Part shown: positions 39,147 to 59,940 of the stretch, piece by piece | Numbering within the stretch: position 1 is the first letter of the stretch | Layout of the letters: each line of letters starts with the position of its first letter | Assembly (NCBI GenBank): GCA_019248075.1 | Contig: JAEHHG010000001.1 | Coordinates: 9,294 to 73,293 of the forward strand | DNA from: Candidatus Gracilibacteria bacterium S5_H10 | GTDB lineage: Bacteria; Patescibacteriota; Gracilibacteria; Absconditabacterales; Absconditicoccaceae | DNA: 64,000 nt | Reading direction: 5' to 3' | The notes under the pieces: model-generated | Database searches by the model: none | Seen by the model: only the letters and a program-made list of their open reading frames with translations | Told to the model about the DNA's origin: nothing | Translations under genes and position numbers: made by a program

Positions 39147-40715
39147 ATGAAAAAATTTCTAATCACAACGCCTATCTATTATCCTAATGGCTATCCACAC
39201 ATCGGACACGCATATAGCTCGTTCATCGCTGATTTCTATGCGAGATACAAAAGACTTTTTGGATATGACGTAAAATTTTCTACCGGTAACGATGAAAACA
39301 GCCAAAAGATCGTCCAACAAGCGGAATCTGAAGGGAAAGATGTTATGGAATATCTCAATGCGATGGGCAAAAAACGAGAAGATGTCCGACAGCACCTCCA
39401 GATTTCCTATACTGATTTCATTAGGACTACTCAAGAAAACCATAAAAAGTTAGTCCAAGAAATGCTTCAGAAGTCTTATAATCACTGAGATATCTATGAA
39501 GGAGAATATAAGGGATATTATTGTATAGGATGCGAAGGATTCAAGACAGAAAAAGATTTGATCCCAAAAGATTGAGAAATGGTCTGTCCTGATCACCTCA
39601 AAAAGCCTGATCTCATCACCGAAAAGAATCGATTTTTCAAACTTTCAAAATATGAAAATCAGATAAAAAAATTCTATACTGATCATCCAGAATTTCTCGT
39701 ACCGGAGTATAGATACAATGAAATAAAATCCTTCGTCAACGGAGGTCTGATAGATTTCTCCGTCTCTAGGGAAACTAATAAATTTTGAATACCCTTACCT
39801 TTTGACCCAAGCCAAGTGACCTATGTACGATATGATGCTTTATTCAATTATGTAACTGCAAGCAAAGACGCATGATTCCGAAATGAAGACACTGAAATCG
39901 TCCATGTTCTTGGGAAAGATATCGTAAAATTTCATGGAATATTCTGGCCAGCTATGCTGATGAGCGTACAAGAAAAGTTGCCAAACAAAGAATTCATTAC
40001 TGGGTTTTTTACCGTCGACGGACAAAAGATGAGCAAATCGCTCGGCAATGTCATTGATCCCGTAAAAGTCGTAGATGACTATGATAGGGATGCTGTTATT
40101 TTCAATCTTCTCTACGATGTACCTATCGGCGCTGATGGAGATTTTTCTGTAGAGAGATTATGACATCTGTATGAAAGTATGCTCATCGGATGATGGGGAA
40201 ACCTGGTCAATAGAGTAACGAGCCTTTGCAAAAAATACGGAATCACTAGTGGAAAATTCAACAAGCAAAAATGGGAGACATTCAAAGAAGATAACGAAAG
40301 CAAGCTCCTTCATTACTTTGAAGAATGACGAGACAATGCGAAAATAGAAGAGCAATATCTTAGAAAAGCGGAGATCAAATCCTATCTCGACGACCGATAT
40401 CAATTAGTCCAAAGAGCCAACGAATATATCACGAGAGCTGAACCACGAGCTAAGTATAAAAATGATGATACGAAGAATGAAGCCATTGCTGATCTCCAAT
40501 TTCTCTTGTATATAGTCAAAAATATCGCTTTGATTTCCGCACCTATCCTCATCAATGGATTCAAAAAAATCCAAGATATTTTTGGTAACGAGGAATTTGG
40601 CAAAATCGATTCCAGCAAGAACGGCAACGAACATCAATTCAAATTAGTCTTTGATCAGGAAGATTTCACAGTGAATCTAAATCCTGCGATTATCTACAAA
40701 AAGAAAGAAGAATAA
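39147..40715 (+). CDS. metG: methionine--tRNA ligase
   Basis: TPIYYPNGYPHIGHAYS (HIGH), YV(CGA)[14 protein letters not shown] (KMSKS), and EP(CGA)AK in the anticodon-binding domain. Confidence 0.95.
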
Positions 40716-47468: not shown

Positions 47469-48101
47469 TTACTGGCCCCAACCAAAGTTCATAAAACCAT
47501 TTCGTTTGTACTTGGCTTTGTGATTAGGATTTTGAGCAAACTTTAGGAAATATTCCACAAGCCTGTCGTAATACTGCCAGAAATAATCTGGATCCTCATC
47601 AGGATTGAAAACAAAAAGATGTATGATTTCATCTTCAATCCATGGAATCCTTTCTCCGGATGCCCAATCAATACCACCATTCACAACAGATTCACAATAA
47701 TTATGAAGCCGTTGCAAAGCTTTTTCTGAATAATCGGGACAAACTCTGTACAATTCAGCATTAACACCAACATCGATACGTACCCAAACAGTCTTCTGAT
47801 GTCGTGGAGAATGTTCTCTCCAGTATTCATCATAGGTACCTACAACCTGATCAATGGCGCCCGGCAATTCTTCTTGTAATACAAGCATGACTTCGTTCGC
47901 CCAATATCTGGCTAAGGAATCATACGATGATGGATCATTGGTTGATCGGTCAGCATCAATTCGATTCTCAGCTTCCACAATTTTGTTTCCGGTATTTTTC
48001 AGTATTTCTACCTTTATATACCGTGGCTGTTCATCATCTGAACAGCTTACAACAATCATCGAAATGATTGCAATCATCAAAAGAAAAGTAATTTTTTTCA
48101 T
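47469..48101 (-). CDS. lipoprotein of foreign appearance (210 aa)
   Basis: Lipobox-like MKKITFLLMIAIISMIVVSCSDDE. It is intact under the standard code, with 10 Gly codons, none of them UGA, and it is visibly richer in G+C than its neighbours. Confidence 0.7.
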   Translation of the reverse strand: MKKITFLLMIAIISMIVVSCSDDEQPRYIKVEILKNTGNKIVEAENRIDADRSTNDPSSYDSLARYWANEVMLVLQEELPGAIDQVVGTYDEYWREHSPRHQKTVWVRIDVGVNAELYRVCPDYSEKALQRLHNYCESVVNGGIDWASGERIPWIEDEIIHLFVFNPDEDPDYFWQYYDRLVEYFLKFAQNPNHKAKYKRNGFMNFGWGQ

Positions 48102-48287
48102 ATGTTTGTTTTTTATTGTGTTTTACTTTTTGGTTTCTACTGACTATCCTACTAATTTTAATAAAAAAGTCAAGTTTAATCTTTAAAAAAACCATTTTTA
48201 CGATATTCATTGATTTTTAGTGGATTTTCTGTGAATTTTCCGTATATCACACGATGAACTATTCATTTTTACTTTAGGTACTACACT

Positions 48288-50756
48288 ATGGTAAATTTTG
48301 GAATCCTCGGTAACAATTCGAGGAATCTCCTCTATATAAAAAAATTTAACGACAAAAAAGGTATTCGTCTAGCAAACAATAAGCTTCAGACGAAAGATTT
48401 TCTCGTAGAAAGAGGAATTCCGTTTGCAAAGACTTACGGAATTATTTCCAATCGTACAGAACTCTATGATTTTGATTTTGCTTATCTTCCCAAGAAAAAT
48501 TTTGTCGTGAAGCCCAATCATGGAAGCAAATGACAATGAGTCTATATTGTAAAGTATATCGAGGAACAGCATCCAGATGAAAATAATAGTAAAGAAAAAA
48601 ATATCAGTAAAAAGAAAAATACATTTCAAAAGCGATGAGAGCAATGTAAAAAAATATTTTTGAAAAAGTTTGAAGAACATCAACATCACGGCAACTACCA
48701 GATAGGAGATGAAGTACTGACTGATCAAGATTTTAGAAGACGTTTGCTAGATATCATTGATGGAAAGCATTCTATGACACTTGGTGGAGACAAAATCATT
48801 ATAGAAGAAAAACTCATCGCCGGAGAATTATTCAAAGAATTTTGTGACTATGGATTGGCTGACATTAGAGTCATCGTCTTCAATCTCGTGCCTGTCGCGA
48901 CCATGATCAGAGTACCGACAAAACAATCCTGAGGTAAAGCAAATCTCGCTCAGTGATGACTGTGATTTGGTATTGAAGTCGGAAGTGGTAAGATTACTTC
49001 CCTACTCCGAAAAAATAAAATATACAAAGTTAGATTTCCCAAAAAATTCGCTCATTTCCAAAATAAAAAACTTCCCTACTGGAATGACATTCTTTTTCTT
49101 TCTTCCAAAGTACAGTATTTTGTCAATCTCTGATATCTCGCACTTGATCGAGTAATAACCAATGAATGACCAAAACTTCTGGAGATAAATGCAAGAGCGT
49201 GATTAGAAGTACAAAAAGTAAGTGATACAAAATTGAAAAATATTTTGGATAAAATAGCTGATCTCAAAATAGTCGATCCAGAAAAATGAGTAGAAATAGC
49301 AAAAAGTTTATTCACTTCTGAAAAATCAAATCTCCTCTGACAAAATAAACTTCTTTACCTTTCTCAATATGCAAAGCTCATCATCAAAGAAAAAGAAGAA
49401 GAGGAAAAAATTGATGTTATCGTAGAAGTAGATCTGAATAAATCATGAAATTATATGTCACAAAAATTGTTTAATAAAATCAAAGAAAATAAAAGAGAAC
49501 GATATCTTGATCTCTACGAAAATGAGATTACCCTCAAAAAATCAAAATTTTCTAATCTGGAAAGTCTAGCTGATAATAAAATAATTCTTGGTAACAAAAC
49601 TGCAAGCAATTATCTTATAAAACCTATTCATAAAACTTTTGATGTCGTTGATATCGTCAATCCAAAATATATTTATCCATTGGAAACTGCAGAACTTCAT
49701 AGCATTGATCAAAGAATAGAAAAAATCAATAAAAGACTTAATCTCTCTGCAAGACTAAGACCACTAAATTATTTTAGTGAACTCGATAAATTCATCACGC
49801 TTCACGGAAAATATAATCCTATTTTCCATTATAAACGACCAAAAGAAGATAAACTGAATCAGACCAAGAACGAAATTATCAAAATCCAAGAACACCTTCT
49901 CAAGCTCAAAAGCCCGTTTACTAAGATATTTTTGGACAAACTTGAAGAACTAGAAACGAGAAGAAATCTCATTCTTGCGTATACACAACAAAATTTTGAA
50001 AATATAGCATTGTACAATAAAAAACTTTTTGGTGAGTTCGATGATGAACTTTTGAAGATAGCAAAAGAAAAGGTATTAACACTCAAGGAAGATAATCAAA
50101 AGCTTTTGTGAGAACCGTTGACTCTATCGGAAATAGAAAAAACCATAGAGAAATATCTCGCAGAAAAAAAGATTTATGGTGTAGATATTGTTTTCAGTTA
50201 TACTAATCTTTCAAGAATTTCTGTGATTATGGGAAAACAGATTAAAATAAGCATTTCCAAGCATGGAGTATTCAGAGAAAAGGAATTGCTTTCTATTTTA
50301 GCCCATGAAATCGATACTCATCTCGTCAGATATCTTAATGGACTCAAATCTGGATGGAACATTTTAAAATCAGGAACTGGATTCTATCTCAAAGATGAAG
50401 AAGGGCTCGCCATCTATAATGCCGTCAAAATACTTCCTGAAGATTATGAAAAGAATAGTTTCTATAAAAAATATTTTTTAGTCAAAGAAGCAGAAAATAT
50501 AGATTTCAAAAAACTTGTAAATATGATAGAATTTCTTTATCCTAGCTATTCAAGAGAATTCCATTTTAAAACTGCATTGAGAATCAAAAAAGGAATTATA
50601 CATACATCAATACTCCATCCAGGAACTGTTTTTATGAAAGATAAAATCTATCTAGAATGATACAAAAAAATCAAACAACTAATGGAAGATTGAAAAGAAA
50701 ATGCTAAAATATATAAATGAAAAATTAAAAGTGAAGATTTAGATTATATAATATAA
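48288..50756 (+). CDS. fusion protein: RimK-related alpha-L-glutamate-ligase-like ATP-grasp domain (N-terminal) plus DUF1704/QEGLA MATCAP-like metallo-carboxypeptidase domain (C-terminal); 822 aa
   Basis: Track ORFs 48288, 48660, 49455 and 50118 are all in frame 0 and join through UGA. ATP-grasp signatures: FVVKPNHGSKGQGV, DIRVIVFNLVPVATMIRVPTKQSGGKANLAQGG and GPKLLEINARAGLEVQ. C-terminal domain: HEIDTH (50304..50321) and DEEGLA (about 50396). Confidence 0.8.
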
Positions 50757-50757
50757 C

Positions 50758-51726
50758 ATGGCGGCAAAACTATGATTTCAACAAATTTCCAAATATTTTT
50801 TGCAAGAAGAAGCAAAAAAAAGGTGATATACTATAGAAACTATTCATGAAAATAAAAATATTTTTTTTATAAAGCACAAAACAAAAAACATCTTATTTAA
50901 ATGAATCGATGCTTGATTAACTACTAGACTTGGCAAATATTTAAGCGAAGACAAACTTTTAACCTATACATTATTACAACGTAATAATATAAACATACCA
51001 GAATGTATAGTGATACATAAAAAAAACAAGATAGATCTTACAAATATAATAAAATTATGATTTCCATTGGTAACGAAACCTCTCAATTGAAGCTTATGAA
51101 GATGAGTTGTTGTATGAATCAAGACTAAAAAAGAACTAGAAAAAGCAATTAATTATAGCTTTGGTTTTGATAAAAATATCATCATACAGAAATGCGTTGA
51201 ATGAAAAAATCTAAGAATATTAGTCATCAATCATAAGGTATTTGCGTGATTAGAATGGTCAAGACATCATATAGTATGAGATGGAAAATCCTCCATCAAA
51301 GCATTATTAGAAAAAGAAAATCTAAATTCTCGAAGATGAGAGAATATTCTTATATCCACACTTCCAAAAATCAATATCAATCAAGATTTAGAAGATTTTT
51401 TTAAAGTACAATATTGATATGCATTTACTCATCGTCCTAAAAAGGATGAAATAATTTTTCTCAAAGGAAATGGATACAATAAAGTAATAGATATTACCGA
51501 TGAAATTCCGAAAAAGATTAAAGAAAAGTGTGAACAAGCAAGTATTGTTTTTGATTTAAAGGTTACAGGGATTGATGTGATATATAATATATCATCTTCA
51601 GGGGAAATGGATTATCGAGTATTGGAAGTAAATTCTCAGCCAGGAATAAGAACACATCATCTACCCATGTGATGAAAACCGAGAAATGCGGCATGAGCTA
51701 TTTTGGATCTTTATTTTGACAAATAA
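50758..51726 (+). CDS. ATP-grasp ligase resembling the N-terminal domain of cyanophycin synthetase
   Basis: The ATG lies 1 nt after the upstream stop. FPLVTKPLNGSLGRGVVVGI...RILVINHKVFAG...VLEVNSQPGIRTHHLPMGGKPRNAAGAILDLYF. Confidence 0.7.
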
Positions 51727-51760
51727 AGCATACAATATATTTATTTTTTCACTATCATCT

Positions 51761-52714
51761 ATGGAATTCGGATCATATGCATCTAATCAAATCTATAAAT
51801 ATGCTAAATCATACGATGTAAAAGCAACTGCGATTTCTTATGCAGACAACCTTATCCTGTTGGAGCACAAAGGAAAAAAAGAATTAATAAAGCAGACAGC
51901 AACTCGTTTCACTAATCTTATCCAAGGAAGAATCTGCGACAATAAGATTTTGACAACACAATATTTAAAAAGGAATTGAATCGATAATGTACCCAACAAC
52001 ATAGTGATCAAAGATTTTGAAGAGATAAAAAAGTATAAAATAAATTATCCCGTAGTCGTCAAACCATTAAAATGACATTGATGAAAAGGGATATCTGTAT
52101 GAGTCAGGACAAAAAAAGATTTGGAATCAGCATATAAAATAGCTAAAAAAGTTTATTTTCGCGTATTGGTGGAAGAACATATAGAAGGCGATGATTATAG
52201 ATTCTTGGTGATTGATAAAAATGTCCGAATATGCAAAAGAATGCCGCCAAAAATAATGGGGAATGGAAAAAATACCATTAAAAAACTTATAGACAACGAG
52301 AACAAACTAAGGGCAAAAACAAAAATTCTCGTGAATATCAAAATTGATAATGAGCTTAAACAGCAAATAAAAAAACAAGGATATACTTTGGATAGTATTC
52401 CTGCTAAGGATGTAGAAGTAGCACTTAGAAAAAACGCCAATCTGAGTACGTGAGGTACAACTATTGACTATACAGACCAAACACATATACAAAACAAAAA
52501 ATTAGCACTCAAAATAGCCAAGATTATGGATATGAAAATCATAGCCGTAGATTTTCTCTTTAAGGATCCAACGAACCCCTATTCTAAAGAAAATGGGATA
52601 ATTATAGAGATAAATGATACACCATGAATAAGATTACACCATCCAAGAGAAAAAGAGATTGTATATAACATATGTAAACTTTTATTCCCTACTCTTAGAA
52701 AATGAAAATATTAA
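51761..52714 (+). CDS. second cyanophycin-synthetase-N-like ATP-grasp ligase
   Basis: YPVVVKPLKGHGGKGISVGV...YRFLVIDKNV...NLSTGGTTIDYTD...IIEINDTPGIRLHHP. Confidence 0.7.
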
Positions 52715-53571
52715 TAGTCCATGCTATAGAAAGACCCACACTTAATTTATTAGTACAGGCAGCCAAAAAAAGATGACATACTGTTCTTACGTGTAAAATA
52801 TCGGATATTGAAATATATGATGGAAAAATATTCTGCAACAATCAAGATATTGCATCTTTTGATATTGTACTTTTTAGAGAAATCAGAAACAATAACGAAG
52901 AAGCAAAAATGATAACAACATATCTTAATGATTATAAAAAAATCATCATAGATGAAAGAATACGTGATGGTAAATGATGAAGTAAAATAAATACTTATCT
53001 GACACTTTCTCAGGCAAAAATCCCATTCCCTAAAACGATGTTTTTTTCAACAATCAAAGGCAAAGGATATTCATTTATTTCAGAGATATTATGAACACCC
53101 TTCATAACAAAGACAATAAATGGACAACAAGGGAAATGAGTCTATTTGACAACAAGCGAAGACGAATTTGAAATACTCAAAAAAGAACATACGGAAGATA
53201 AATTTTTGTTTCAAGAATTCATACCTAATGATTGAGACATCAGAGTGTTTATAGTATGAGACAAGATATTATGATCTATCAAAAGAACAGCACAAGCATG
53301 AGAATTTAGGAATAATGTAGCATTATGATGAAGTGCAGAAACAATAGAGATATCAAAAGAAATAGCAGAAATAGCGTTGAAAGCTAGTAAAATATTATGA
53401 TTACAAATAGCATGAGCAGATGTAATCATACACAAAAATACAGGCAAACCATATATTTTGGAAGTAAATCGTTCGCCGGAATTTGAATGATTTATGGAAG
53501 CAACACATATAGACGTAGCTACCGAAATCATCTCTTTTCTTGAAAAAATATGAACACCAGAACTTACATAA
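52702..53571 (+). CDS. RimK-type alpha-L-glutamate ligase
   Basis: It overlaps the upstream gene by 13 nt. PFITKTINGQQGKGVYL...GDIRVFIVGDKILGSIKR...FRNNVALGGSAE...GADVII....GKPYILEVNRSPEFEG. Confidence 0.8.
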
Positions 53572-53607
53572 CAACATCATATAAAATATTTGCAAAATAA
53601 AAAAAAC

Positions 53608-53637
53608 AGGGTAAAATAATATTACCTCTTTTTTTTA
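53608..53637 (+). terminator. weak rho-independent terminator
   Basis: A short stem gggtaa/ttacct followed by T8. Confidence 0.4.
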
Positions 53638-53654
53638 TTAAACACCATTAGCGT

Positions 53655-55343
53655 ATGAAAAAAAATACCGATCAAAACGAATCCCTACAACAAAAAGAAT
53701 TCATGAATATCGCTAAAAAAATAGAAAATATCAAATCTAATATTGAAAAACCTATTTGAGGTATTTTACAATATACTCCAAACGGAATTAACAAAAGTTT
53801 TTTTTCTGAAAGTATAGAAAAAGTAACTCAGAGGGATATTGATAACGCGACTATTTTTCTTAATAGCTATTTACAAGAATTCAAAAGATTGGCAAAAGAA
53901 GTCCAAGAAAGTACTTTTCTCAATGATGTACAAAAAAAACTATTTATATGAACACTTAAAGCATTTGGTTTAAAAATAATACTCTTTAAATCTGCTGTGT
54001 ATATAGAAGGAGAAAAGTGATGATATGAACTCAATCCCAAAGATAAAGAACAATATCTCAGAAATATTGAAAAAATAGAAAAACTAGTCTATTGACCAAA
54101 TATATCTGAAAAAAAAGAAGAAGTAGATGTAATTATGACTTGATTAGATAGTCTCTATCAAAAAAATAAAGATAAAATCACTCTCGAAGAGCAAAAATAT
54201 TTTTCTCATTTTTTAGAAAAGTTTCCATGAAGAATATCAGAGACGAAAGAAATAGATATCGATAAAAATAAATTATGAAAACTTAACCAAGAAAATCTTG
54301 CTAAGATTTTTCAAAAAGGACTTAATATGTACAATATACAATCCAATATAGTTAAAATAAGTGATAAAATATCAGAAATTAAAGATGAAGATTGAATTCT
54401 TTATCTTCCACTACAAAATCCTAGCACCTGAGAAGGACGATTGAAAAAAGATTTGGATACTATATACGAAAAATTTTGATATAAAAACAATATATTGAAG
54501 ATAAAAATACACAAATGTGCTGCGATAGAAGTAGATATTCCTGGATATGAAATAAATATACCATCTAGCACTAATTACTATTCTGTTATCAGATCTTTGG
54601 AGCTATTATCACATGAGATTGTTACTCATGCATTTATCTGAACCAATAAAAAAAATAAATTTAATTTAGAATCTGATAGCTATCTCGAACTTCAAGAATG
54701 AATTGCTATGCTCAACGAAAAAGCAGTAACTACTGATATCAAAAACATATCTGTTGGTCCAACTATACATCATATATCAACATTTATTTGAGAAAATTAC
54801 AATATTACAGATACAAATAATATTTTACAAATATATTATAAGTTAAATGGTAAGAAAAACTTTCAAAGTTTAGCAAAAAATAGGACAGAAAGAGTTAAAA
54901 GATTTCATGCTAATGATCAGGAATGAGCCAACAGAAAAGATACAGTATATCGAAGAGGTATGGTAGATGGATTAAATTATATAAAAAACTTAGATGAAAA
55001 AAGCATAGAAGACATAGAAACACTACAAACAGATATTTTCAATTTTCATGTCGGGAAGTTAGGTAAAGAAGAGGTAAAAAATGTTCCACAACTCATAGAA
55101 TGATTTGATATTACACCGAAAAACATCATTTTACCTGCAGATATTGGAAAATTATTACTTTGGCTGTTGGAAAAAAATTCGCCAGATGGAAAATGAATCA
55201 AAATAACCAATGAAGCATTAGGGAAAAATGATATAAGATTTAAAGCATCGTTACCAGAGCAAAAATTAAATTATACACAGAAAAAATTACTCTTAGAAAT
55301 GAGAACATTCATCCAAAACAACACAGAAATAGAAAAAAAATAA
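53655..55343 (+). CDS. DUF1704/QEGLA-family (MATCAP-like) putative metallo-carboxypeptidase; 562 aa
   Basis: Open in frame 0 with many UGA-as-Gly codons. HEIVTH lies at 54612..54629 and QEGIA at 54693..54707, where the Gly of the motif is itself a UGA codon. Confidence 0.7.
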
Positions 55344-55382
55344 TACATAGTTTCGCTTGAATCCTATTGTTAAATCAGTTTA

Positions 55383-55412
55383 ATACAGACGATTTATTTG
55401 TCTGTATTTTTC
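55383..55412 (+). terminator. rho-independent terminator or attenuator
   Basis: An 8-bp stem atacagac/gtctgtat followed by a T-run, only 3 nt upstream of the next ATG. Confidence 0.55.
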
Positions 55413-55414
55413 TT

Positions 55415-56716
55415 ATGAAAAAAATCATCGCCATTATAGCATTACTTGCGGGAAGCATATTCCTTTTTACCACTACTTCAGCACAATTTACTTCCACCAC
55501 TTGTGAAGGACAAAGTCACTGCTCTGCTCCTACAAAATGAGTAAATTATAGAAATACTATTATCTATCTCTGAGAACAATGAGAAGAATTCGATCTCGGA
55601 TTTCAACAAAATTTTGATAAACAAAAAATTTTACTCCAGGAAATTTTTATCTCTGAAAATAAAAGTTTTTCTGAAGAAGAGCTATCAAATAAGATATTGG
55701 ACAATCTTGAGGAAATCAAAAAAGCAAATACGTTGATTATCAATACTGCAAATTTTGATATTCTTTTCCAATCGCTAGGAAAAATAGATGCTATAACTCC
55801 ACTTAATTTAGAATGAAAAACGATATATCTTGTAACCAATAGTAATAAATTTTTTCTCAAAAGAACCCTTGCTAAGCAAATCAAATCCATAAAAACAGAA
55901 AAAATATATACGCTATCTCAGAGTAAATTGCTCAATTTTCTTTCTACCCTTTCATTGGGAAAAATAGATAATAATGAAGACTATATAACGTCATTTTCGC
56001 TTTCATTTCATGAAACACCAAAATTTCTTATTATTTCGTATCTTGTAGATCATCTTATCTATAACTGATTTCCTATCGAGCTCATTGGCATGTTTTTATT
56101 ATTATCAATATGAGCATTGGTGATAAGTGTCCTCAGGCAAGTTGTTTGATTTTCTGTCTTTGGTATTTATATTCCGCTTTTGTTTGCACTTTCGTTGTTC
56201 ATGCTATGAGTACCATTAGGATTAACTTTATTAGCGATAGGATTGATTGCAAAAATACTTGTAAGACTTTTCACCAAAAAAATGTATCTGCTTCACAACG
56301 CCAAAACATCACTACTGGTTATGCTTTATTTTTTTATTCTCTTGCTGTTTTTGGGACTCAATACAATATTTGATCTCCCCTTTATAGATATGAATATTTT
56401 CAATAATGTATTTATCATCTTACCACTCGTCTTTGTAATCATAATCAGTGATAAAGTATTTAACGACTGATTCAAACTTTTTAGCAAAGGACGATGGGTA
56501 GCATTTATAGAATTTTTAGCTGTTTCATTCGCTGTATTCGGGCTTTTCTATCGAACTGGACTCAAACATACCTTATTGGCTTTCCCAGAACTTTTGATTC
56601 TGATCTTCTTTCTCAATATCGCTGTCGGAAGATTTACCGGACTTCAACTTCTCGAATATTTCCGTTTCATGCCATTACTAAAAAACTCCTCATGGACTGA
56701 GGAGGAAGAGGAATAA
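55415..56716 (+). CDS. signal peptide plus extracytoplasmic domain plus 7-TM module, resembling the 7TM domain that accompanies RimK-related ATP-grasp ligases; encoded C-terminus is EEEEE
   Basis: MKKIIAIIALLAGSIFLF signal sequence, about 200 aa of soluble domain, then seven hydrophobic helices (track fragments 56243 and neighbours); ends ...LLKNSSWTEEEEE, TAA 56714. Confidence 0.6.
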
Positions 56717-58265: not shown

Positions 58266-59525
58266 TTATTCTTCAAATGTTTTTTCCAGGATAAGCGTTA
58301 TGATTACTGCGATAGGTACAGCAAGCAATATTCAAACTATTCATAAGATCAAAGCTCATATAATCATACTAATGAAAATCACGACAGGATTCACTCCAAG
58401 CGTTTTATTCATCAATAATGGAATCAATACATTATTTTCCAATCGTTGTAATAAGAATACTACACCGACGACAATCAATGCTCAATATATTCAAAAGTTG
58501 AGAAATGCAACCAATGCAGCTGATAATCATCCAACAAATGGTCAAATATATGGAATAAATTCTGTCATTGCTACAATAGCAGCAAGCGCTCATTTCTGAG
58601 GAAGATCAATACCAAAAATTGCTAATATCCACAATGCAGCATACATTGCAACTCCCATAATAATACAAAGCAAAAGCTGTGATTTTAATCGAATACCAAG
58701 TTTTTTATAAATCCTTTCGAGTTTCATGTAGACAAATTTATATTTTTTTTCTCCCCCAAGTCTTGCGATAAATTTCATCACTGAGTCTTTTTGAATAGAA
58801 AACAATACAGAAAGTGTTAATACAATAGACGTCTGAGTAATAAAGCTAAAGAACGTACCGACTGCTGTCACTGCCATCGTACCGATATTTTTTGCATACG
58901 TTGTTCCTATACTTACTATTTGAGAAATGTTTTGTTGTAACTGTGTTTGTACACCAGCTACTACACCAGGATTGCTAAACGAATCCAAAAGACCAGTCTT
59001 TAAACTTCATGGTAACCATCTAATATCTTGAATAACTCCAATCAATGATTTTGTGGTCAAAATATCTTGAAAACTAGCGATATTGTTGATACATATCGTA
59101 ATGATATCAGAGATCAGATTCAGAACAAATGGGATGATAAATACCATAGCTCATAAAAATGCAACGATCATAAGCAAATATGCTAACGCAATAGTTATCC
59201 CTCTGTATGGGATTTTTTTATGGAAAAAATCTATAATAGCTTCCATAGCAAGCGAAATGACATATGCCATGAAAATAAGATAGATAATGTTCAATGATTT
59301 ATAGACCAATAATCAGATAAAAATAATCAATATTCCAAATATCCAAAATTTCATAAACATTCTATTGGTGAACACAAAAGGAGCGACAGAAGTCTTTTCT
59401 TGTTTTTTTTGTTCATCAAGTTTCTTCTCCAGTTTTTCCAATTCCAAAAGCTGTTTTTTGTTGTCAGACTTTATAGACTTAAAAAACTCAGATCCGCTTT
59501 TTATGATTTTTTGAATAATGGTCAT
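58266..59525 (-). CDS. AI-2E family (PerM/YhhT) transporter; the start is alternatively at 59678
   Basis: Eight TM segments, with the typical C-terminal EFIPYIGPFVGG...ENNVLIPLLMNKTLGVNPVV. Confidence 0.8.
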
Positions 59526-59577
59526 ACTATTGGGACTAAATGAGTAAAAAGTTTTTTGTGTATATATTTTGCATATT

Positions 59578-59940
59578 CTATATTTTTTTTTGTTCCAGCT
59601 TATCGGCAAATCATTTTCGTGCTTGTTCAAATTCTTTTTGTATATAGACAATTGTATCTTTTTTTGAAAAATTTGCAATTTTTTGGATTATTTCTCAGAC
59701 ACGAACCTTAGACACTACAATGAATACTTTATAAAACACATCATTGATAGGCATTTTTATCAGATTATGCTTTTGGATGTCCTGCATAATAGCTCTTTTG
59801 ACCATATGCCTCATCACAGCCTTTTTGGACAATTTTATGGTAACATGAGAAGAAATTTGATTGTATTTGATACCTGGATATTGCCTGATATAAAAAAAGC
59901 CAAACAATCCCTGGCTAAGATATTGCCTTTTTCTTGTCAT
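59578..59940 (-). CDS. rnpA: RNase P protein component
   Basis: KLSKKAVMRHMVKRAIMQ matches the KK.AV.RN..KR RnpA motif. The UGA at 59695 is read through to TAG 59578, giving 120 aa. Confidence 0.65.

Follow-up and report, generated by a model that had tools for sequence, protein, structure and literature searches.

The DNA analysed here was a stretch of 64,000 nucleotides (hereafter, the window) from Candidatus Gracilibacteria bacterium S5_H10, and the subject of this study is a cluster of six co-directional genes, A to F, located on the + strand at positions 48288-56716. When translation table 11 was applied, this region was broken into short open reading frames (ORFs); with TGA read as a sense codon, it resolved into six ORFs at the positions that an earlier sequence-only reading of the window had given. 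The cluster encodes four ATP-grasp ligase domains, two MATCAP-type peptidase domains and a predicted seven-transmembrane (7TM) protein that ends in a run of glutamates. The domain assignments proposed earlier for A to F were each confirmed by significant Pfam or TIGRFAM matches in hidden Markov model (HMM) searches. As judged by homology, the cluster is the version of an RloB/RloC-type membrane-associated peptide-ligase system that belongs to lineages of the candidate phyla radiation (CPR).

Alignments indicated that the genetic code in use here is one in which TGA encodes Gly and CGA encodes Trp. TGA was assigned to Gly because the TGA codons sit at conserved Gly positions, as in the loop of A that reads GSKgQgV opposite GSGGKG of Aeromonas RloC. 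In the neighboring CysS gene, four of the six CGA codons aligned to Trp in solved CysS structures, and the reassignment of CGA/CGG to Trp is on record for the Absconditabacterales (PMC13092985). The Gly and Trp alignments and this record thus backed the sequence-only reading, which had taken TGA as sense and CGA as Trp. The public proteins P0001 and P0121 correspond to window positions 48288-50756 and 55367-56716, respectively. The deposited gene A protein differed from our own translation solely at 17 TGA codons (given as Trp) and five CGA codons (given as Arg), which indicated that the public record used code 4. Since code 4 puts Trp at positions of the conserved ATP-grasp loop GSxGxG that are Gly in the homologues, code 25 with CGA as Trp fits better.

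Gene A (48288..50756, +) encodes a protein of 822 residues that is predicted to be the conserved core enzyme of the system, in which an RloC/RimK-related ATP-grasp ligase is fused to a MATCAP-type Zn carboxypeptidase. The ligase domain (residues 12-329; 48321..49274, +) matched PF14397 ATPgrasp_ST above the cut-off (2.5e-42, 145 bits) and TIGR02291 at 2e-51, and the MATCAP/DUF1704 metallopeptidase domain (residues 474-821; 49707..50750, +) matched PF08014 at 4.8e-16 (59.1 bits vs a cut-off of 27). The ATP-grasp residues were found at K75 in VVKPNHGSKGQGV, at D287 and at E299/N301 in LLEINARAG. The peptidase motifs were HEIDTH at 50304-50321 and DEEGLA at 50394-50411, and H673, E674, H678, D703-E705 and the other catalytic residues were invariant in an alignment of 13 sequences. 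Comparison of the peptidase domain with human MATCAP (7z5g) by phmmer gave E=1.2e-12; in the alignment, HEIDTH was paired with HEIGTH and EEGLA with EEGLA. The scores against two equivalog models lay below the curated cut-offs (72.3 vs 338.65 for QEGLA, TIGR02421; 174.9 vs 314.2 bits for rimK_rel_E_lig, TIGR02291), so that A, on its sequence, is related to both families and is an equivalog of neither. There were 587 detectable homologues of A, and the two-domain architecture was present in nearly all of the 120 that were listed.

Gene F (55415..56716, +) encodes the core partner of A, a protein of 433 residues with a predicted topology of signal peptide, external α/β domain of ~190 residues, seven transmembrane (TM) segments and cytoplasmic tail. 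The membrane module (residues ~216-405; 56060..56629, +) was delimited from the Pfam match (226-421), hydropathy, the positive-inside rule and the helices of an AlphaFold2 (AF2) model, and it matched PF14402 7TM_transglut above the cut-off (8.7e-10, 38.9 bits). The loops that follow TM3 and TM5, both rich in Lys/Arg, share one side of the membrane with the GRFTGLQLLEYFRF segment, and therefore the tail was placed in the cytoplasm. In the AF2 model, which had a mean predicted local distance difference test (pLDDT) score of 71, the external domain was built of alternating β/α units. A Foldseek search of the model against the PDB gave no significant match and returned only generic Rossmann-, CheY- and periplasmic-binding-protein-like folds, and a Pfam search of residues 24-215 gave no match, to a transglutaminase or otherwise. 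As modeled, the external domain is not a transglutaminase. In longer F orthologues, PKD or Y_Y_Y-type domains stand in its place. The variation of the extracellular domain from lineage to lineage makes F look like a receptor or conduit.

Four accessory genes lie between A and F. Genes B (50758..51726, +; 322 residues) and C (51761..52714, +; 317 residues) encode stand-alone ATP-grasp ligases that resemble the G domain of cyanophycin synthetase (CphA). Both matched TIGR02068 (B, 1.8e-58, 198 bits, model positions 164-472; C, 4.2e-77, 260 bits); the coverage was limited to model positions ~161-473, which is the G domain alone, and the scores of 198 and 260 bits compare with a cut-off of 850. The best PDB match of C was cyanophycin synthase 7wac (residues 198-485, E=2.8e-46), and the two proteins also matched GshAB and the N-acetylglutaminylglutamine (NAGGN) synthetase model TIGR03103 strongly. 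The two had previously been described as paralogues that resemble cyanophycin synthetase. The paralogy was upheld as a distant one (30% identity, E=1e-31) and so was the resemblance, with the qualification that, on these matches, B and C are stand-alone CphA G-domain-like ligases and not cyanophycin synthetases. A bona fide cyanophycin synthetase was dropped as a candidate for B and C, as the scores and the N-G-M architecture fail.

Gene D (52702..53571, +; 289 residues) encodes an α-L-glutamate ligase that is assigned by its sequence to the RimK family, with a match to TIGR00768 rimK_fam over model positions 1-274 of 276 (9.6e-50, 169.5 bits vs a curated cut-off of 143.4). Its best PDB matches were the RimK structures 7qyr (Pseudomonas, E=1.1e-32), 7qys, 5zct and 4iwx (E. 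coli), and its nucleotide and Mg motifs, ITKTINGQQGKGV and ILEVN, were intact. Gene E (53655..55343, +; 562 residues) encodes a predicted metallopeptidase of the MATCAP family that is free-standing and divergent and has a helical region of ~290 residues at its N-terminus. Its match to PF08014 was weak but above the threshold (1.8e-7, 30.9 bits vs a cut-off of 27). The motifs of E were HEIVTH at 54612-54629 and LQEGIA at 54690-54707, and HEIxTH and the Glu of LQEGIA were kept in 15 of 16 homologues. An hhalign comparison of the E family with the A peptidase domain gave a probability of 76% (E=2.3e-5) and aligned their catalytic motifs. A phmmer search of the PDB with E gave no sequence match, and a Foldseek search with its AF2 model (pLDDT 77) gave no PDB match at E<=0.001 and just weak matches to gluzincins of the angiotensin-converting enzyme type. 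The catalytic motifs named in the sequence-only reading were all present, since HEIDTH/DEEGLA in A and HEIVTH/LQEGIA in E were accompanied by the K...GxGxG and D...E-x-N motifs, Mg ligands included, in all four ATP-grasp domains (A-D). The five enzymes A-E thus had intact active-site motifs, and they lacked signal peptides. The coordinates also gave a gap of 1 nt between A and B and an overlap of 13 nt between C and D, so the translational-coupling geometry had been described correctly.

The cluster is not peculiar to a single reduced genome. In a pattern scan with one genome per species, the A-type fusion was encoded in 219 species-level genomes (loci) of Absconditabacteria/SR1, Gracilibacteria and Peregrinibacteria, and the core of A and F was accordingly counted in at least 219 species-level genomes from three CPR lineages, with B-E variable. 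The carriers of A included RAAC1_SR1_1 and Vampirococcus lugosii, and the Peregrinibacteria A proteins showed ~30% identity. We fetched 80 loci and searched them with the window proteins under code 25, and 62 of these had sufficient flanking sequence. In 45 of the 62 informative loci, an F orthologue either followed A at a distance of no more than 9 kb or directly preceded it; the gene-neighborhood conservation that had been proposed as a check on the cluster was therefore observed. At locus L085, from a standard-code lineage and with an F tail of ...EDSQE, F overlapped the A-type fusion by 1 nt, and at locus L084, F overlapped a ligase gene by 1 nt.

Nothing lay between A and F in 20 of the 45 linked loci, and in the remaining 25, the intervening genes included between one and four additional ligases and at most a few additional peptidase matches. 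The extra cassette genes elsewhere showed 25-40% identity to B-E or belonged to other families, including ATP-grasp_4, ATP-grasp_3, a 366-residue HECTH protein, a YdjC-like protein and, in RAAC1, a Mur-ligase-like gene. The full B-C-D-E set was retained (64-79% identity) in one species representative alone, L008, which was also the only fetched locus with a B orthologue at 79% identity. Because the A-F linkage is kept and B-E differ, the system consists of a conserved core (A and F) and a strain-variable accessory cassette, and the window cluster is at the complex end of the cassette range. The convergent MurF gene beside F showed 83-89% identity in close relatives, which indicated that the chromosomal site is stable. 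The HECTH protein of ~366 residues also carried a NEGAA motif; it was encoded at L005 12916-14016, L011 14686-15786 and L042 10840-11937, had no Pfam match and, from its motifs, looks like another gluzincin-type peptidase. Within the window, the cluster (48000-56000) had a G+C content of 0.28-0.31, compared with 0.36-0.38 in the adjacent 2-kb blocks, and a strong positive AT skew of 0.14-0.24. This base composition fits a cassette that has been exchanged or that evolves differently from its housekeeping flanks.

The C-terminal cytoplasmic segment of F (56627..56713, +), the proposed acceptor or docking tail, contains a conserved helix, GRFTGLQLLEYFRF, followed by a short variable linker and EEEEE at 56699-56713. 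Read straight from the DNA, the last residues were ...NSSWTEEEEE, and the TAA stop codon followed at 56714-56716. In the fetched loci, an end of 2-7 Glu was shared by the complete F orthologues of Absconditabacteria through Peregrinibacteria, with a single exception (L062, with an aberrant C-terminus), and the 8-10 residues preceding the run varied between orthologues. An exhaustive profile search yielded 1,294 representatives of the F family, and the tail census was performed on 239 F-family sequences with an intact C-terminal region. At least two terminal Glu were present in 197 of the 239 (82%), compared with 0.27% expected from composition; of the others, 9 ended in a single Glu, 21 were Lys/Arg-rich and 12 had other ends. 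The Glu run was always at the extreme terminus. No description of this oligo-Glu terminus of the F family was found in the accessible literature, and no peptide gene or other acidic-tailed protein was found within the cluster (48288-56716). Two more window proteins end in EE, namely an AI-2E family transporter encoded two genes downstream of F (58266-59678, -; ...EKTFEE) and the methionyl-tRNA synthetase MetRS (39147-40715, +; ...KKKEE). The explanation of the Glu tail as an accident specific to this window was considered in view of these two proteins and dropped because of the family-wide conservation.

The sequence-only reading knew of no characterized system with this composition, which calls for a correction, since the N-terminal half of A and the 7TM module of F are homologous to RloC and RloB, respectively, of Pseudomonas aeruginosa. 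Against the Aeromonas proteins, the N-terminal half of A showed 27% identity to RloC over the full length (E=3e-34), and the 7TM module of F showed 25% identity to RloB (E=2e-7). An RloC-like PF14397 ATP-grasp domain is thus linked to a PF14402 7TM protein, and, as in RloABC, the genes for ligase, membrane protein and peptidase are together. The RloABC operon of P. aeruginosa was studied genetically (mBio 2025, PMC12239564). The RloA proteases of P. aeruginosa are retropepsins that are secreted and cut stretches of eight or more Glu. Pseudomonas mutants devoid of these proteases have osmotic, biofilm and antibiotic defects that are suppressed when rloB or rloC is deleted, and the two deletions are epistatic to RloA loss; the RloB C-terminus was not discussed (PMC12239564).

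Comparison of the two systems revealed the same core and several differences. In the present cluster, the peptidase is a predicted cytoplasmic zinc carboxypeptidase of the MATCAP type that is fused to the ligase, rather than a secreted retropepsin, and no secreted retropepsin-like (RloA/RimB-type) peptidase was found in 48288-56716 or its flanks, where the peptidases were MATCAP-type. The external domain of F was modeled as a Rossmann-like α/β fold and not as an inactive transglutaminase, and the space between the core genes can contain up to four additional ligases as well as additional peptidases. In addition, F carries the terminal oligo-Glu run, which was absent from the three distinct proteobacterial RloB-type proteins that were examined (ends ...LAKARS, ...GATPGKDK and ...NADTDGH), the partner of which is a secreted retropepsin. 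The RloABC operon corresponds to a cassette of ATP-grasp ligase, 7TM/inactive-transglutaminase protein and aspartic peptidase that is said to have been first predicted by Iyer and colleagues in 2009.

The cluster also resembles two other systems in part. In the RimK/RimB-S6 system of E. coli and Pseudomonas, the ligase adds α-Glu to an encoded -Glu-Glu end and a dedicated peptidase removes it, and D belongs to the RimK family; in the present system, however, the proposed acceptor is a 7TM protein, the predicted eraser is a metallocarboxypeptidase and not the retropepsin RimB, and several ligase subfamilies are involved. The tubulin cycle (TTL/TTLL; MATCAP, VASH and CCP) likewise combines an acidic -EE tail with ATP-grasp writers and a MATCAP-family gluzincin eraser. 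In contrast to that cycle, the ligases here are of the RimK, RloC and CphA-G subfamilies rather than TTL, and the proposed substrate is a membrane protein. By this analogy, the resemblance to tubulin is one of proposed working and not of membership. A literature search revealed no paper that links MATCAP-family proteins to bacterial ATP-grasp ligases and none that links Rlo-type or MATCAP systems to Absconditabacteria.

Every ligase family in the cluster is known to add an amino acid to a peptide C-terminal carboxylate. RimK adds α-linked Glu to ribosomal protein S6 at its -EE end, the G domain of CphA lengthens its polymer at the C-terminus and GshB-type enzymes act on a dipeptide, while MATCAP cleaves the residue that follows -GEE on α-tubulin. 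Since the ligase and MATCAP families have this chemistry and, of the cluster proteins, F alone has a matching end, the most parsimonious model takes the F tail as the acceptor, which the ligases would extend and the MATCAP domains would trim; we give this reading a probability of about 45%. According to this model, the acceptor would be the cytoplasmic C-terminus of F with its genome-encoded run of 2-7 Glu, and the ligase domain of A would use ATP to extend it, most likely by α-linked Glu, as RimK does on S6. The other ligases, B, C and D, would attach more residues or residues of another kind, and whatever had been added would be cut back by the MATCAP domains of A and E until the encoded -EE(E) end remained. 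The length or composition of the tail would set the activity of the 7TM protein. The peptide LLKNSSWTEEEEE was named as a synthetic stand-in that would serve as the primer for the tail-acceptor model. The sequence-only reading had combined writers, erasers and a membrane module; this combination fits all of the findings, to which the oligo-Glu end of F is now added as a candidate acceptor, and the reading is partly supported. By analogy with the Pseudomonas Rlo phenotypes, a link to envelope or osmotic homeostasis is possible.

Several observations weigh against the F tail as the acceptor. The F-family proteins that end in Lys/Arg-rich tails make up ~9% of the family, and at L084 (8001-12037), a Lys-tailed F adjoins separate ATPgrasp_ST and MATCAP genes, which indicates that an acidic tail is not obligatory. 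A Lys-tailed F without an adjacent partner gene was found at L086 and L087, and the Lys/Arg-tailed proteins may form a sub-family of their own with another chemistry. Linkage of A and F is missing in some genomes, for example in Vampirococcus, and the proteobacterial RloB control comprised three distinct sequences only, from a plasmid collection and a metagenome scan. The F tail may serve as a tether and not be a substrate, and RimK-type enzymes also make free poly-α-Glu. In Sinorhizobium, a MATCAP/QEGLA homologue adjoins a glutathione-synthetase-like ligase without a 7TM partner, and therefore the MATCAP/QEGLA family can also act on small peptides. This locus (L090 4349-8150, pSymB of Sinorhizobium meliloti) contains three genes, for an amidohydrolase-like protein, a QEGLA/MATCAP protein of 660 residues and the glutathione-synthetase-like ATP-grasp protein; the first ORF was judged N-formylglutamate-amidohydrolase-like by eye alone, and the group suggests an older soluble ligase-peptidase pairing. 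Finally, the periplasmic location of RloA in Pseudomonas (PMC12239564) points to a product that is exported there.

Some of these points would be accommodated if a free poly-amino-acid or oligopeptide (poly-α-Glu or a mixed Glu/Asp type) were made in the cytoplasm, with F as its conduit or anchor and the MATCAP-type peptidases degrading it or setting its length. The Glu tail of F would then be a primer mimic, a tether or an autoregulatory element, comparable to the C-terminal pentapeptide of chemoreceptors that docks CheR and CheB. We consider this explanation, the main rival to the F-tail model, rather unlikely for the window cluster, although the poly-α-Glu activity of RimK and the Lys-tailed F variants speak for it, proteobacterial RloB functions without a Glu tail, and the strain-variable ligase cassette resembles variable surface polymer loci. 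The cleavage of runs of at least 8 Glu by the periplasmic RloA also implies an extracytoplasmic poly-Glu-like product in Pseudomonas (PMC12239564). A QEGLA protein of Photobacterium was induced 27-fold at low salinity (PMC10308900), and this induction, together with Rlo hypo-osmotic tolerance, fits osmolyte buffering by Glu or poly-Glu. By analogy, the periplasmic location of RloA and the tail-less RloB favor a free polymer for the proteobacterial system. A docking patch, however, need not be strictly terminal, and the run length of 2-7 Glu would be unexplained. Moreover, protein tails are what the MATCAP-type carboxypeptidases act on, no recognizable transporter fold or export ATPase is present, and the 7TM module of F has no demonstrated channel function.

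It is improbable, in our estimate, that the ligases serve other cytoplasmic acceptors and that their clustering with F is regulatory or incidental. D would then be an ordinary RimK acting on S6, B and C would make a di- or tripeptide of the glutathione or N-acetylglutaminylglutamine type, and the MATCAP-type proteins would be carboxypeptidases for peptide recycling. The score of D above the RimK-family cut-off, with authentic RimK structures as its closest matches, is consistent with this proposal, as are the strong GshAB and TIGR03103 matches of B and C, the Sinorhizobium pairing with a GshB-like ligase and no membrane protein, and the accessory, variable nature of B-E. The proposal nevertheless leaves the A-F linkage in three lineages, the ligase-peptidase fusion and the terminal Glu run of F unexplained, and the 1-nt gap and 13-nt overlap argue for one functional unit. 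A split cyanophycin synthetase that makes a cyanophycin-like storage polymer is very improbable. It would draw on the best matches of B and C, which align to the ATP-grasp G domain of CphA1 that extends the C-terminal carboxylate of the polymer, and on the RAAC1 locus, where the Mur-ligase-like gene between a RimK-like gene and F recalls the CphA M domain. The TIGR02068 scores of B and C, however, are far below the cut-off, and neither the N nor the M (Mur-ligase) domain of CphA is encoded in the window cluster, which also lacks a cyanophycinase. The sole nearby Mur ligase is the MurF-like one, which is on the opposite strand and is the same conserved gene that flanks F in the relatives.

The genes that flank the cluster encode housekeeping proteins, namely LysA, CysS, MurF, the AI-2E transporter, L9, UvrB and MetRS. 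Directly upstream of A, a predicted lipoprotein of 210 residues (47469-48101, -) has a signal peptide and a VVSC lipobox; it is markedly Trp-rich with CGA as Trp and has no Pfam match. The spacer between E and F contains a stem-loop of 11 bp with TTTCTT after it (55382-55408, +); this element lies directly upstream of the F ATG and could be an E/F terminator or attenuator, or a translational control element. The promoter and terminator scan was at or below shuffle expectation and gave no information on operon structure, and no tRNA or Rfam elements were found in the window. The PADLOC defense-system models had no matches among the six cluster proteins, and the reading of the cluster as a defense system was dropped on this ground.

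Compared with the systems of the RloBC and RimK-RimB kind, what is new here is the fused, predicted cytoplasmic MATCAP-type eraser, the different ectodomain, the variable extra writers and the oligo-Glu end on the membrane partner. For the substrate question of the RloB/RloC-type systems, the CPR variant supplies a concrete and testable candidate acceptor, the partner's own Glu tail. A wider and more tentative proposal, to which we assign a lower probability, is a bacterial 'tail code' in which a fused writer-eraser would reversibly lengthen and shorten the oligo-Glu C-terminus of F and variable ligases would write residues of different kinds; the tubulin tyrosination/glutamylation cycle would have in it a prokaryotic counterpart and possibly an evolutionary source. 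If true, the 'tail code' would be the first regulated C-terminal amino-acid tailing of a membrane protein. MATCAP was identified just recently as a tubulin detyrosinase, and the occurrence of bacterial MATCAP relatives with ATP-grasp ligases, in a fusion or a cluster, and with an -EE protein would place the writer, eraser and acidic-tail logic of the tubulin code in bacteria. The lineages that carry the core are nearly impossible to study genetically. The retention of this core across hundreds of reduced episymbiont genomes, together with a variable ligase set, suggests an important, diversifying function in the envelope or in host interaction.

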